UHGV virus genome: UHGV-0374425
Strand: one strand, 5' to 3'
DNA: 21,656 nt
DNA from: a virus
Below are positions 14,935 to 20,054 of this stretch, piece after piece; positions within the stretch are counted from its first letter, which is position 1, and the number at the start of each line of letters is the position of its first letter. Both the position numbers and the translations under genes were made by a program. The notes beneath the pieces were generated by a model. That model made no database searches, was not told where the DNA came from, and saw nothing but the letters and a program-made list of their open reading frames with translations.

Positions 14935-16872
14935 TCAGCCGCCGGACGCACTGCCGTAGTTCACTCCGGTGATCACCGCCACCGCCGCGGTACGGCGACG
15001 ACGCCAGTTGATCCAGCGCTCCGCACGGATGGCCACGCTGCCTGTCTGGAACATGGAAACCAGCTCCACCGGCGACGGCGTGGTACTGTCGCCGGTCGGC
15101 TCAGACTGCATTTCCAGTGATGCCTCGCGGGACATATCCACTGCCACGCCGCCGTCATCCGCCAGATAAATATCCGGGGCATTCACCAGCACCAGCTGGT
15201 CACCCACGTACTGAGAGACAATCACCGGCAGCCCCTGGAAGGTCCCCCCCAGCAGGGTCATGTCCGGATATTCCTTCTGACCCAGCGCATTTTTACGCAT
15301 GGACAGTGCCAGGGCATTTGTGCTGGACATCAGCCAGACCGCACCGGTGGGCTGCAGGTTTGCTGCCACAAACTGTCCAAACGCCGCCTCTGCATCCGCA
15401 TCCGGGTTACCGCTTGATGCCGTGCCCTTCACATCATGGGTGATGGACGCCGGGGAGACATCTGCCACCGCCGCTTTTTTCGGGTCCACAAAGTCTGTAT
15501 CCAGACGCGCCACCACCGCTTCCGCCAGCGCATTACGGACCAGTGCATCAGCAGCCGGACTGGAAAAACGGATCAATTCTTCCGTCAGTACCGCAATGGC
15601 CGACACCTTCGCATGACTGAAGGTGATGGATTCAAAATCAAACTTCGTCAGGGGTTTTGCCTTACCCTCCCCCACCCAGCCGGCAGCACCGCCGGACACC
15701 TGGGCGTGCACACGGATATTGAACGGCACCTGACGAAGTGCAGGGATCCCGCCCTGACCAAATCGCCCGATAATGGTCTGAGGACGCAGGTAATCAATAA
15801 AGTCCTGTGCATATTCCTGATATTCAGACAGGCTGCCTGCCCACTGCGGATCCGTGGTGGTCCCCGCGCCCACTGCCGATTTCAGGACATGATGCAGACG
15901 ACTGTCATCAGGATACTGACGACGGGCCACTTCCAGGGCTTCAGAGCGGACACCTTTAGCCGCAGCCAGTGATTTGGCAAAGCGGGCGAAGCCAATCCCC
16001 TTATCCAGTTTCTGCTCCACACGGATCACCGGCGCAGAAGCCACCGCGGCCACATTCCCGTTACCGGCCTGTTTCACCGGCTGCGCCGTGGCGGCCTTAC
16101 CGGCTTCCAGTTCACGCAGGCGCTTCAGGTGCGCATCCACCTGACGGATTTCCGCTGCGGTGTTGTCGTAATGCTCCTCCTCCTCCACATCCAGCGTGCG
16201 CCCTTCCTCTGCGGCTTTGGTCATGACCTCCTCAAGGGAGGCTGCCAGCGCTGCACGCTTGTTTTCAAAACTTTTAATCTGTTCGCCAATATTCATTATG
16301 GTCTTTTCCTTATGAAAAACGGTTGTTGACTGTGCCGCAGCGCCGGCAGAAGATGCGATTTTCACCACCGGTTTCCGGTTGCCGGACGCGGCAGAAAACG
16401 GGCGGTCGTAAGATTTAATGGTCCGGATGGTGCATTCCGCATTCGCGGGCACGGTAACGGCAGACACCTCCATCAGTTCCCAGCGCAGAAAATGCAGTCC
16501 ACCTCCGTCCAGAAAGGTGTATTCATGGGGACGGAAGCCCACGGACAGCCCCCTGACCAGCCCGGTCTTAATGGCCGCCCAGACCTCATCCAGCCGGGCA
16601 GCCAGTTGCGACGGCATATCCGGTACGGGCTTCACCAGTGTTGCCGTGATTTCCAGCCCTTCGCTGACCCGGCGCACCGTACACTGCCCCACCGGGCGGG
16701 AATGGTCATGCTGCCAGAGAAACGGGATCGCACTGCCAAACTCCGCGCCCTCCGGCTCCAGGATGTCACCATCCCGATCCGGAGAAGGCGTTGACGCAAT
16801 CCCGGTGATCACCCGCTCATCCTCACTGAAGGATTTCACCGTCAGCAGGGAGCAGGCCCGTTTAAGAGTCAC
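14935..16872 (-). CDS. Fused prohead protease (HK97 gp4-like) / scaffold-like coiled coil / HK97-family major capsid protein
   Basis: 645 aa; N-terminal about 170 aa has the prohead-protease pattern (...GIASTP..DRDGDIL..GAF...GLSVGF...ELMEVSAVTVPAN); then a charged coiled-coil segment; C-terminal about 400 aa capsid-like; GTG start with AGGAGG RBS. Confidence 0.8.
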   Translation of the reverse strand: MTLKRACSLLTVKSFSEDERVITGIASTPSPDRDGDILEPEGAEFGSAIPFLWQHDHSRPVGQCTVRRVSEGLEITATLVKPVPDMPSQLAARLDEVWAAIKTGLVRGLSVGFRPHEYTFLDGGGLHFLRWELMEVSAVTVPANAECTIRTIKSYDRPFSAASGNRKPVVKIASSAGAAAQSTTVFHKEKTIMNIGEQIKSFENKRAALAASLEEVMTKAAEEGRTLDVEEEEHYDNTAAEIRQVDAHLKRLRELEAGKAATAQPVKQAGNGNVAAVASAPVIRVEQKLDKGIGFARFAKSLAAAKGVRSEALEVARRQYPDDSRLHHVLKSAVGAGTTTDPQWAGSLSEYQEYAQDFIDYLRPQTIIGRFGQGGIPALRQVPFNIRVHAQVSGGAAGWVGEGKAKPLTKFDFESITFSHAKVSAIAVLTEELIRFSSPAADALVRNALAEAVVARLDTDFVDPKKAAVADVSPASITHDVKGTASSGNPDADAEAAFGQFVAANLQPTGAVWLMSSTNALALSMRKNALGQKEYPDMTLLGGTFQGLPVIVSQYVGDQLVLVNAPDIYLADDGGVAVDMSREASLEMQSEPTGDSTTPSPVELVSMFQTGSVAIRAERWINWRRRRTAAVAVITGVNYGSASGG

Positions 16873-16935: not shown

Positions 16936-18597
16936 TTATATGAAAAAAACCGCATATTCTTTCTTTTTGGGCTCCGGATTCAGGGACATCAGGGATACCG
17001 CATTGAACAGCGCCATCAGCGGGTCAATTTTCCCCCGTCCGCTGGCCTGTTTGGTAATAAGGATGGCGTTACCTTTAGGCTCCACCCGGGCATTGCCAAC
17101 GCACCAGGCCATCAGTGGCTGACCACCATGCACCAGCACTCCCTCAGCCAGTTTGCGCTCGGTGGTTTTGATGGCCCCGCCCAGCTTCCAGCCCTGGCTT
17201 ATCCCCACAACAATTCCGTCGGGGATCCCGGCTTCCGCCAGTGAATCCAGAATCTGCCCCACACCTGACGGGTCAATACCGATATGATCCAGTAACTCAG
17301 CCTCATGAATACGACGCACATACTCCGCCACTTCCGCCGTGTCATCCCCGACCCGACGGACAATCGTCATGTCTCCACAGGCCACAAAATCCTGAAAACG
17401 GGATGCCTCACTCTTCCGTCTGACCACCGCGGTTTCATGCGCCCAGGCATGGCCCCAGCCCAGCCATTCGCGGGTTTCCCTGTCACGGCCAATCACGTAC
17501 ATTCCCAGCAGATCATCCAGGCCCCCGCCGTCAATCCCCACCGTCACCACATCAGCGCGCTGCAGGATATCGTCCAGGCTGACGCGCCTGCCCTGCTGCT
17601 CCCAGAAATCCGCACCCGCCCAGCGGTCAGAACGCAGGGCAAGACCAATTTCCACATTGGCGTGTTTTGACATGAACCCCCGGAATGTATCTTCACCGGC
17701 TTCCCGGGCTTTACGGTACTCCCGGCACAGAAAAGCCTCATCCACTGAATAGCCGAGATTCGGATTGACCATGGCGAGGTTTTCCATCAGCAGGTGAGCT
17801 CCGCTTTCCACCATTTCAGGAGGGTGTTCAAATATCACCGGCAGAAAGTGCGGATCATGAATTTTGCCGTCGCGCACATCCCGGGCGTACTGCAGTTTCT
17901 GTCTGAACACCCCGGCGGGCGGTTCATTCGACTGGGTGGTCGTATACACCACAAATCCTTCCGGACGGGAGGCAAGCCCGCCGATGGCTTCACGTAACAT
18001 GTCTTCCGCTTTGTACTGCTTGCCAAACAGCCACAGTTCATCAATCAGTGTCCCCACGGACTTGATACCGGACACCGTATTCGGATCGGCTGCCACCACC
18101 TTCAGGGTGGTGTCCGTCACCCGATGGGTGATGGTCCGGATATGTGTCTGCACCTGACAGAGGTCATCCAGATCATCGTCCCGTCGAACCATATCCCTGG
18201 CAGGGTTGAAGGCGTTAGCCGCCACCTCCACGGTCGGGGCCAGAATGGTGTAGCCCGCCGCCTGCCGCCAGTTCAGTAACAGCGCCGTCATCATGATCCC
18301 GGCAGCCAGCGTGGACTTGCTGTTTTTCTTGGGGATAAGGATAAAAACTTCCTTGATATGGCGTACACCGGTCTGCGCATCGTAGGAGCCAAACAGGGCC
18401 GCCACCAGGTCAAACACCCACGGTGCACAGGACTCCCCGAACGTAGGGCTACCAGGTGCATCCACTATCCGCAGTTGTTTAAAAATCGCCAGGGCATGTG
18501 CGGCCTCGTCCGGATAAATCGGATCCGGAATAATCGACAGCCCCTTTTTCAGGCGCTCTGCCCAGTCCGGGCAGGCTGTGCTCCATACAGGTATCAT
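16936..18597 (-). CDS. Terminase large subunit
   Basis: 553 aa; Walker A-like PKKNSKST near the N-terminus and a nuclease-like C-terminal region; downstream of and overlapping the small subunit. Confidence 0.9.
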   Translation of the reverse strand: MIPVWSTACPDWAERLKKGLSIIPDPIYPDEAAHALAIFKQLRIVDAPGSPTFGESCAPWVFDLVAALFGSYDAQTGVRHIKEVFILIPKKNSKSTLAAGIMMTALLLNWRQAAGYTILAPTVEVAANAFNPARDMVRRDDDLDDLCQVQTHIRTITHRVTDTTLKVVAADPNTVSGIKSVGTLIDELWLFGKQYKAEDMLREAIGGLASRPEGFVVYTTTQSNEPPAGVFRQKLQYARDVRDGKIHDPHFLPVIFEHPPEMVESGAHLLMENLAMVNPNLGYSVDEAFLCREYRKAREAGEDTFRGFMSKHANVEIGLALRSDRWAGADFWEQQGRRVSLDDILQRADVVTVGIDGGGLDDLLGMYVIGRDRETREWLGWGHAWAHETAVVRRKSEASRFQDFVACGDMTIVRRVGDDTAEVAEYVRRIHEAELLDHIGIDPSGVGQILDSLAEAGIPDGIVVGISQGWKLGGAIKTTERKLAEGVLVHGGQPLMAWCVGNARVEPKGNAILITKQASGRGKIDPLMALFNAVSLMSLNPEPKKKEYAVFFI

Positions 18598-19157
18598 CCG
18601 TTTCCCTCATTATCGTTATTCACCACCAGTCGGGGTGGCGGTGGCACAGCAAAACGGTTAGCCGCTTTTTTCGCGGCATCACCTTTTGCCGATTTTTTCC
18701 CGGTATCCCCTTTTTTATGGTGCGTGAACTGCGCCAGACGCCAGGCCGCATCCAGTGCCAGTTTCGGATCAATGCAGAGGTTTTCCACCAGGATCCGCCC
18801 CATGGCTTTCACCGGATCGGGAAGACCATCCTCCATATATTCAATACCAGGAGACATCACCGCGGACGGTGGCATCTCCGGATTGTTTTCGTCCGGCTGT
18901 GGTATTGCAGCCGCCTCACGGCGACGGGGTTTATCCTCCTGCTCTGATTTTTTCTGCCGGTAAACAGGAACCTCATCCACCTCCACCGTCTCGCATTGTT
19001 TACGGGCTATAAACGCAAGCACCTCCGGATCTTTTGCCAGCTGTGAGCCTTTAACCCTGGCGGTCTTCGCCGAATAACCGGCGGCAATGGCTGACGCTGT
19101 TTTGTTTTTCCCGGACATGAGCGCCAGCGCAAATTTTCGTTTTTGCGTTGTCAGCAC
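18594..19157 (-). CDS. Terminase small subunit
   Basis: 187 aa; N-terminal HTH-like region KRKFALALMSGKNKTASAIAAGYSAKTARVKGSQL typical of small terminase DNA-binding domains; basic/Pro-rich C-terminus; start overlaps TerL. Confidence 0.75.
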   Translation of the reverse strand: MLTTQKRKFALALMSGKNKTASAIAAGYSAKTARVKGSQLAKDPEVLAFIARKQCETVEVDEVPVYRQKKSEQEDKPRRREAAAIPQPDENNPEMPPSAVMSPGIEYMEDGLPDPVKAMGRILVENLCIDPKLALDAAWRLAQFTHHKKGDTGKKSAKGDAAKKAANRFAVPPPPRLVVNNDNEGNG

Positions 19158-19229
19158 AGCCTCCTCCCGGGTCCAGAACGCACTCAGCCGGGTATGGTTC
19201 AGCCCATTTTTCCCGGCGTCTCATGCCGC

Positions 19230-19360
19230 AAATGTTAACTGCTGCCTGGTTAACATTTGCTGAAAAAGCCAGTTAACATTTTTTCCGCACAACAAACTGA
19301 ATAATAAAGATAAAAACCGCAAAAATGCCCGGGCAGCCAGTTAACATGTTAACTGCCCTG
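19230..19360. promoter_or_regulatory. Cluster of five GTTAAC-containing boxes between HNH and TerS; candidate terminase recognition (cos-proximal) sites
   Basis: AAATGTTAAC(19231-19240)...GTTAACATTT(19250-19259) inverted pair; GCCAGTTAACAT at 19268-19279 and 19336-19347; palindrome GTTAACATGTTAAC at 19340-19353. Confidence 0.4.
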
Positions 19361-19446
19361 AAACGGGAATTTTTTCTCTGCGTGAGAGGGGGCGCGGTGT
19401 CCGGAGCGATCGTTTTTTACGCCGGATGATCCCCCCCCGGGTCGGG

Positions 19447-19812
19447 TTACAGTCCGATGATGTCGTCCGCTCTGCCACTACCTCCGGACACCTCCGGCAG
19501 CGTCGGGTCCGGCATACCACCCGCCGCTTCACGAGCAGACTTTTGTCGATGGCATTCGGTACAGAGCGTCCAGAGATTCGTCTCCTCATTACCACCACCG
19601 AACTGAAGTGCAATTCGGTGATCAAGTTCACTGTCACAGAGGTCAACCACACGACCACAGAGACAGCACTGCCCGGCGTCCCTGAGCCAGATATGACGCT
19701 TGAGGGAAACACGTGCACTGCCACTGACACGACGCTGTTCCCCCTTCAGAATATTCACCCGTCGGGTATTCAGTGTTTTGATTCTGCTCTGGAGTGTACG
19801 AAGCTCAGCCAT
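19447..19812 (-). CDS. HNH endonuclease (packaging-associated type)
   Basis: 121 aa; CCLCGR...ELDHRIALQFGG.NEE.NLWTLCTECHRQKS is a clear HNH/zinc-finger motif; sits upstream of the terminase genes. Confidence 0.85.
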   Translation of the reverse strand: MAELRTLQSRIKTLNTRRVNILKGEQRRVSGSARVSLKRHIWLRDAGQCCLCGRVVDLCDSELDHRIALQFGGGNEETNLWTLCTECHRQKSAREAAGGMPDPTLPEVSGGSGRADDIIGL

Positions 19813-19853: not shown

Positions 19854-20054
19854 ATGTCATCGAAAAACCGGACCCGCAGAACCACAACCCGCAATATCCG
19901 TTTCCCCAATCACATAATTGAACAAATCAACATAGCCCTTGAGCATAAAGGGTCCGGTAACTTTTCAGCGTGGGTTATTGAAGCCTGCAGGAGAAGGCTG
20001 GCAACAGATGCAACGCATCTGCGCCCGGCCAGCATGAAAAATAACGAGAAATGA
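19854..20054 (+). CDS. Small ribbon-helix-helix-like protein, possibly YlcI/DUF3950-like
   Basis: 66 aa; basic N-terminus then NIRFPNHIIEQINIALEHKG.GNFSAWVIEACRRRL (strand-helix-helix pattern); good RBS AAGGAAA; divergent from HNH; family assignment from memory only. Confidence 0.5.
   Translation: MSSKNRTRRTTTRNIRFPNHIIEQINIALEHKGSGNFSAWVIEACRRRLATDATHLRPASMKNNEK

Follow-up and report, generated by a model that had tools for sequence, protein, structure and literature searches.

The viral genome UHGV-0374425, analysed here as a stretch of 21,656 nucleotides (the window), raises the question of what five copies of one short motif do in front of a small terminase gene, and of which protein reads them. 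The copies lie in a gap of 289 bp between the genes for an HNH endonuclease and the small terminase subunit (TerS), both on the minus strand. A preliminary description, which had put the gap at about 290 bp, proposed a candidate cos region of the HK97 type, with the boxes as plausible terminase binding sites. Among 5426 complete E. coli genomes, 1278 contain the same gap, with as many as seven copies in one genome and 3001 copies altogether, and no feature is annotated on it. Our literature search found no paper describing the boxes or the palindrome sequence, and an article on chi hotspots in lambdoid phages (PMC12315714) holds nothing on this type of cos. [quoted passage not shown] As far as our literature search shows, a TerS address of the cosB kind has not yet been described for this group of HNH-dependent 3'-cos phages.

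Packaged ends and flanking genes

The genes on the minus strand follow the order HNH, 289-bp gap, TerS, TerL and a fused protease-capsid gene. The HNH gene (19447-19812) matches PF01844 (E 7.5e-7) and phrog_589 'HNH endonuclease' (E 8e-45), the accessory nuclease of HK97-type cos packaging. The TerS gene (18594-19157) is of the Terminase_2 type (PF03592; phrog_641, E 2e-68) and begins with a GTG behind GGAGGAGG, at +230 if counted from the packaged left end defined below. Some public annotations (Lys8385Vzw CDS 185-793; P0001) place the start at a CTG 15 codons upstream (19157-19202), which gives proteins of 202-203 aa. By alignment, the GTG at 19157 is the better start, because GGAGGAGG precedes it and because it coincides with the Met-Leu-Thr start of all relatives. 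TerL (16936-18597) contains an ATPase domain (PF03354, E 1.6e-11) and a nuclease domain (PF20441, E 1e-9). Further along, a single ORF of 645 aa (14935-16872, minus strand) encodes a fusion of the prohead protease (Peptidase_S78) with the major capsid protein (Phage_capsid). A small DUF3950 gene of the YlcI/YnfO type (19854-20054) lies on the opposite strand, divergent just upstream of HNH and within the late region. In this region the window shares 95-98% identity with the head modules of many Stx1- and Stx2-converting phages, among them BP-4795, 2851, YYZ-2008, 1717 and the Pankowvirus phi330; the gap belongs to a Shiga-toxin-type prophage of E. coli.

The position of the packaged ends was taken from Lys8385Vzw, a near-identical phage whose virion reads were typed by PhageTerm as cos, with a 10-nt 3' overhang CGCCCCCCCT (PMC7946995). 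Its deposited record starts with CTCACGCAGAG / CTCACGCAGAGAAAAAATTCCCGTTTCAGGGCAGTTAACATGTTAACTGG and ends with GGACACCGCCCCCCCT. The first 240 bases of this record match the gene strand of the window from 19386 downward (239/240 identical), and its last 70 bases match 19456 to 19387 (65/71). Because the Lys8385Vzw ends align to 19386/19387, the cut falls within the G/C tract, at a distance of 31 bp from the nearest box. By this proxy, a single PhageTerm report on another isolate, the packaged left end (+1) of the window would be 19386 and the 10-nt 3' cohesive end would occupy 19387-19396 (minus strand; gene strand CGCGCCCCCT). The window thus carries the CGCGCCCCCT allele of the overhang, and 14 of 50 IMG/VR haplotypes carry CGCCCCCCCT. 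Lys8385Vzw was the sole record beginning at cos that was found in the phage collection searched; the phi330 record, tried as another end marker, is cut inside TerS and was uninformative.

The proposed cos region is therefore borne out by the alignment of the Lys8385Vzw ends, which belong to a cos and not to a headful phage and map within the gap. The G/C-rich tract said to adjoin the boxes is real, and the inferred cleavage falls there (19387-19396), close to the boxes and not in them.

The left end opens with the core CTCACGCAGAGAAAAAATTCC (19366-19386, minus strand; +1 to +21), which includes an A6 tract at +12 to +17 and is conserved in phages and satellites. On the other side of the cut, a run of eight G followed by ATCA (19431-19438, minus strand) forms a conserved upstream cos element, which every relative and also the satellite-like loci described below possess; 43 nt (19430-19388) lie between its last G and the cut. 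Since the core is conserved whatever the type of TerS, the stretch from G-run to A-tract is probably read by shared machinery (TerL/HNH) or through DNA shape.

Two further observations concern the surroundings of the cut. An 11-nt perfect inverted repeat, GGTGTCCGGAG / CTCCGGACACC, occupies 19396-19406 and 19482-19492. Its proximal arm borders directly on the cos overhang; the distal arm, at the 3' end of the HNH gene, was not seen in distant relatives. In the PPompW_132418 locus (LC567822; L264, 746-2204) an IS110-family element, ISEc20, directly adjoins the cos G-run (window about 19431-19438), which is reduced there to GGGGG. The PPompW prophages have the order Q, tRNAs, IS, cos, TerS and are missing the lysis genes and HNH; they are probably defective, with the box array still intact.

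Box array and its variation among relatives

All five GTTAAC boxes that had been noticed were found within 19234-19353. The hexamers start at 19234, 19249, 19272, 19340 and 19348 and make up five of the eight in the 21.6-kb window, for which shuffled sequences give an expected mean of 3.0. An extended box, CAGTTAACAT(T/G)T, occurs without mismatch at 19230-19241 (-), 19270-19281 (+), 19338-19349 (+) and 19344-19355 (-), and with two mismatches at 19247-19258 (+). Boxes 5 and 4, the proximal pair, form a perfect palindrome, CAGTTAACATGTTAACTG, which the repeat search extended to 18 bp (19338-19355; +32 to +49) from the 14 bp first reported. Box 3 (19270-19281, +; CAGTTAACATTT, gene strand ATGTTAACTGGC) follows at +108 to +119. 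Boxes 2 and 1, at +131 and +148, lie in the inverted pair recognized earlier (19228-19260; +127 to +159), whose arms GCAAATGTTAAC / GTTAACATTTGC (19228-19239 and 19249-19260) are perfect over 12 nt and are separated by a 9-nt spacer. The two direct copies that had been described correspond to AGCCAGTTAACAT at 19267-19282 and 19335-19350. Altogether the boxes span about 125 bp, from +32 to +157, and their hexamers are spaced 8, 68, 23 and 15 bp from centre to centre. These distances match no simple helical register, a point that weighs against the reading preferred below.

Between the proximal and the distal cluster lies a spacer with recurring T-tracts (19282-19337, minus strand), which we propose to be an intrinsically bent linker. 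Seven diverged lineages with an expanded array (the window, L169, L172, L178, L260, L261 and L262) have T-tracts near +52, +62, +71, +79 and +91, at a period of about 9.7 bp and with different bases in between. Among the IMG/VR haplotypes the spacer length varies by at most 3 bp, so that box 3 lies at +108 to +111, and the distal spacings of 23 and 15 bp are constant. This phased recurrence suggests an intrinsic curvature of the spacer, which would replace the IHF-induced bend of lambda cosB; the IHF consensus WATCAANNNNTTR has no match within one mismatch in 19158-19446.

On the gene strand each copy of ATGTTAAC opens a mini-ORF with Met-Leu-Thr (24, 9 and 11 codons; 19349-19275, 19281-19252 and 19258-19223, minus strand), and the product of the 24-codon frame is hydrophobic (MLTGCPGIFAVFIFIIQFVVRKKC). 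Small hydrophobic peptides were considered as products of these mini-ORFs and rejected: the 24-codon frame is open at the same length in L169 and shortened in L172, and this truncation makes coding unlikely.

All 34 IMG/VR haplotypes retain the five boxes. These relatives all belong to what we call type A and are at least 94% identical to the window; their boxes never vary, and since their spacer hardly varies either, boxes and spacer can be told apart only with distant loci. The diverged type-A lineages (the window, L169, whose TerS is 66% identical, and L262) agree in layout and in their GTTAAC cores but have drifted apart in the spacers, with 36 of 38 box columns invariant (95%) versus 80 of 160 other columns (50%). 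Box 3 is moreover identical to the right arm of its own lineage's palindrome over 12-16 nt, in the window (CTGGC), in L169 (CCACC) and in L172 (TACCC).

A second set of lineages, type B (L172/173, L260, L261, L168 and L263), has a TerS with the changes A25E, T32S and V35C. All five boxes read (A/G)TAAAC in L172/173, L260 and L261, in the layout of the window; the cut contigs L168 and L263 cover only the distal one or two boxes, again (A/G)TAAAC. The type-B palindrome is TATAAACATGTTTATA, in which the dyad is kept through three symmetric double changes, and the inverted pair has become GTTTAC / GTAAAC around an unchanged GGCAGC spacer. Similarity in TerL, in the C-terminus of TerS or in HNH does not go along with box type: the type-B L261 is identical to the window at 230/234 positions of TerL and 82/85 of the TerS C-terminus, the type-A L169 at 330/396 and 55/76.

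A third type of box was found in E. coli and Salmonella contigs reached through the TerS homologues P0064, P0055 and P0113 (L170/171, L174 and L176). These loci contain the complete cos core, including the G-run, next to other genes: a primase (D5_N/AAA_25) in L170/171, AlpA in L174 and SSB in L176. Their TerS proteins are 45-47% identical to that of the window and have KG(W/C)QL in place of KGSQL in the helix discussed below, and their boxes, which begin at +33, read AAAGTTACAC; a locus has one or two of them or about seven, as direct or inverted repeats. L170 and L176 encode a capsid-domain homologue of 307-309 aa, 23% identical to residues 291-629 of the protease-capsid fusion of the window (E 8e-20), and no HNH or TerL gene was seen in the stretches fetched around the TerS genes. 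The loci look like satellites of the cos type that could make use of phages of this group and that bring a Ccm-like homologue of the capsid protein. An identity with cf-PICIs was rejected, the gene order given in the preprint (capsid genes, then hnh-terS-terL) not matching that of these loci.

For a more distant comparison we fetched 23 relatives from other genera, with TerS proteins 33-49% identical to that of the window, among them Salmonella phage FSL SP-016 and prophages of Enterobacter, Kluyvera, Citrobacter and Erwinia. Nearly all of these canonical relatives have the same core, composed of a G-run, about 35 nt and then GGACACCGCGCCCCCT, CTCACGCACAGAAAAAATTCCCCTCTGGAGGGTGTAAAC and ATGTTAACAGC in succession, the last ATG being the TerS start at +40. 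About 20 of them, including FSL SP-016, have one GT(A/T)AACATGTTAAC palindrome at +34, which overlaps the ATG of TerS (Met-Leu-Thr encoded as ATG TTA AC); some of the palindromes combine a GTAAAC with a GTTAAC half-site. Compared with these loci, which share with the window the cos core, the TerS family and the palindrome but have it in a single, ATG-containing copy, the window lineage is derived: palindrome and TerS are now some 190 bp apart, with three more boxes, the T-tract spacer and a displaced GTG start. Smaller, independent expansions were found in Pantoea (L104) and Morganella (L106). A box-type hexamer is present at about +33/+34 in 30 of 30 loci, whether canonical, expanded or satellite-like, the positions being +35/+36 in L104 and L106.

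The codon usage at the overlap is informative. In the canonical loci, whose TerS start lies within the box, Leu2 is encoded by TTA in 20 of 21 cases; in every locus with a start away from the box it is encoded by CTG or TTG. Elsewhere TTA is rare (1 of 126 other Leu codons in the canonical TerS genes; 4.7% of the Leu codons in the large ORFs of the window). Since this rare codon is fixed solely at the box overlap, the box is held at the DNA level and not by coding.

These data also bear on a different origin of the array, namely that the boxes are neutral relics of duplication or slippage of the TerS 5' end, left behind as the 190 bp were added between cos and TerS. The Met-Leu-Thr openings of the gene-strand copies would fit such a history, as would the present TerS start GTGCTGAC, itself a degenerate copy of the box, and the single copy at the start codon of the canonical relatives. 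Neutral relics are, however, hard to reconcile with the near invariance of the box columns in diverged lineages, with the same change in all five type-B boxes, with a proximal box at about +33/+34 even where it is non-coding (in the window, L104, L106 and the satellite-like loci) or with the fixation of TTA at the overlap, and we consider this explanation very unlikely.

The small terminase as candidate reader

The window TerS scores 36 bits against PF03592 (gathering cutoff 26.1), its sole Pfam match, so it does not belong to the gpNu1 family. Residues 1-55 are modelled by AlphaFold with pLDDT >92 as four helices (4-14, 19-25, 30-41 and 44-55), and the best Foldseek matches are the DNA-binding domains of SF6/SPP1-like G1P (4zc3 and 2cmp; TM 0.84, rmsd 1.6 Å, probability 1.0), followed by the small terminases of PaP3 and NV1. 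A sequence search of the PDB agreed weakly with the G1P-type matches. From the predicted structure we are confident that TerS starts with a DNA-binding domain of 55 residues, a helix-turn-helix with the G1P fold.

Residues 32, 35 and 38, in which the box types differ, all fall within helix 3 of the prediction (30-41), which in the G1P fold is the recognition helix. Type A pairs the helix KTARVKGSQL with GTTAAC, type B pairs KSARCKGSQL with (A/G)TAAAC, and the satellite-like loci pair KG[W/C]QL with GTTACAC. The rule for T32/S32 has one exception, L100, which combines Ser32 with ATTAAC, and the mixed half-sites of canonical palindromes count against it as well. Because no more than 230-330 bp separate the boxes from the codons of the TerS DNA-binding domain, the pairing could also reflect the linkage of two old haplotypes rather than co-adaptation. 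The suggestion that the boxes are terminase binding sites nevertheless gains comparative support from their conservation, their fixed distance to the cut and their change together with the recognition helix. We infer from these alignments that TerS reads the boxes and that the extra copies may raise affinity or specificity.

On this preferred reading, TerL and the HNH protein would cut in the G/C tract, leaving the overhang 19387-19396, and packaging would run from 19386 toward TerS. The helix-turn-helix domains of a TerS oligomer would dock on the palindrome at +32 to +49 as the primary site, whose distance from the cut is constant in the relatives. In the window lineage TerS would also dock on three half-sites some 60-100 bp further in (+108 to +155), the phased T-tract spacer letting the DNA curve so that several subunits could be engaged at once. 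The docked TerS would bring the nuclease to the cut, at a distance of some 35 bp, and mark the DNA as 'self'.

The boxes might instead be read by HNH, TerL or a host DNA-bending protein, with TerS reading the conserved A-tract element at +4 to +20 as in HK97. HK97 TerS has a single 15-bp site with an A/T tract, at +15 to +29, and acts downstream of the cut (PMC11331095). This is the sole mapped TerS site of HK97, and the A6 tract at +12 to +17 of the window, which is conserved in the whole family, could for this reason be the real TerS site; the connection of TerS with the boxes is itself drawn from comparison of loci. Such a division of labour is at odds with several findings, though, and appears unlikely. 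Box type is independent of TerL or HNH similarity; it varies within one host species, which makes a host factor an unlikely reader; and the gap has no IHF consensus. The satellite-like loci have a box type of their own, and the stretches fetched from them show TerS and a capsid-like gene while HNH and TerL are absent. Finally, HK97 gp1 is not homologous to the window TerS: a comparison of the TerS family profile with gp1 gave an hhalign probability of 0.1.

The boxes could also control the expression of TerS and the head genes, as operators, promoter elements or hairpins of the late-mRNA leader. They do sit in the TerS leader, the compensatory changes in the inverted repeats would suit an RNA or DNA hairpin as well, and boxes 2 and 3 give a weak antisense promoter-like match (9/12). 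The predicted fold of the leader RNA is ordinary, however (z = -1.44, with 17 of 200 shuffles folding as well), the leader has no Rfam match, and the promoter/terminator scan showed no terminator-like site. Box 3 co-varies without an adjacent partner, and the direct repeats of L104 and L170 are unable to form hairpins. In lambdoid phages, transcription of the late genes starts at the late promoter pR' and continues through them under Q antitermination, so that no local TerS promoter is needed. A role in expression is thus quite unlikely.

Relation to known cos and pac systems

The parallel with HK97 drawn in the preliminary description stands for gene order and, by proxy, end type and fails for TerS. 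The order HNH, cos, TerS, TerL is shared, the ATPase and nuclease domains of TerL are HK97-like, and both phages have an A/T tract just within the left end; HK97 has a 10-nt 3' overhang, as Lys8385Vzw suggests for the window. HK97 has one site and a TerS gene at +50, whereas the window has five boxes over 125 bp, TerS at +230 and a Terminase_2 protein unrelated to gp1. By gene order, TerL type and probable end type, the module belongs to the HK97-type HNH-cos class.

In its mode of action the array would most resemble lambda cosB (R3-I1-R2-R1, bound by gpNu1), by analogy and not as a member of that family. Lambda cosB extends from about +50 to +170, with Nu1 near +190, and the specificities of lambda and phage 21 differ along with the DNA-binding domain of TerS. 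In both lambda and the window, several copies of one motif in mixed orientation lie between the nick site and the TerS gene, and a bend-prone segment, deduced from the T-tracts in the window, parts proximal from distal sites. The box sequence of the window family likewise co-varies with the TerS DNA-binding domain, with the exception of L100. The two systems differ in that lambda has a Nu1 winged helix, 12-nt 5' overhangs and an IHF site, while the window has a Terminase_2 protein with an SF6-like helix-turn-helix, probable 10-nt 3' overhangs that would need the HNH protein, and phased T-tracts where no IHF consensus is found; the proximal site of the window is, in addition, a perfect palindrome.

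The presumed reader shares its TerS family (PF03592) and its N-terminal DNA-binding fold with G1P of SPP1 and SF6. The targets of G1P are short boxes, repeated several times on intrinsically curved DNA near the cleavage site, and its family is otherwise known from headful phages. SPP1 and SF6 package by the headful mechanism (pac), have no HNH partner and carry boxes on both sides of the cut, in contrast to the window, which has a probable cos, and boxes on the packaged side only.

Taken more widely, the comparison allows a tentative reading, which we hold to be possible rather than probable. The cos of HNH-dependent 3'-cos phages of Enterobacterales might consist of two parts, a cleavage core common to many phages and satellite-like elements, and a swappable TerS address made of GT(T/A)AAC or GTTACAC boxes beginning at +33. 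The address would first have been a single palindrome over the TerS start codon, later uncoupled from it and multiplied into the array of the Stx-type prophages, and its types would act as packaging barcodes. If so, the A, B and satellite types would stop the many co-resident prophages and the satellites with capsid homologues in one E. coli cell from cross-packaging each other's DNA. Knowing the cut site and the address boxes would help to predict which prophages and satellites are packageable and how toxin genes spread, to design cos plasmids for transduction and to interpret virion sequencing data. The array would also extend the single-site picture of HK97 to a multi-site, specificity-switching design in another TerS family, and the natural series of one, two, five and seven boxes would lend itself to the study of DNA reading by TerS rings.

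Two resemblances to HK97 go beyond gene order and ends. A G-run followed by ATCA precedes the cut in both HK97 (G10, 42 nt; NC_002167, about 39680-39694) and the window (G8, 43-44 nt; 19421-19438 with ATCA), despite the unrelated TerS proteins, and may be a shared TerL/HNH or end-of-packaging element. In Pantoea sp. BAV 3049 (L104), the region from +31 to +75 contains three to four direct repeats GT(T/A)AACCC, which resemble the HK97 TerS site CTAACCCGA (+15 to +29); the TerS proteins being non-homologous, this likeness may be a coincidence.
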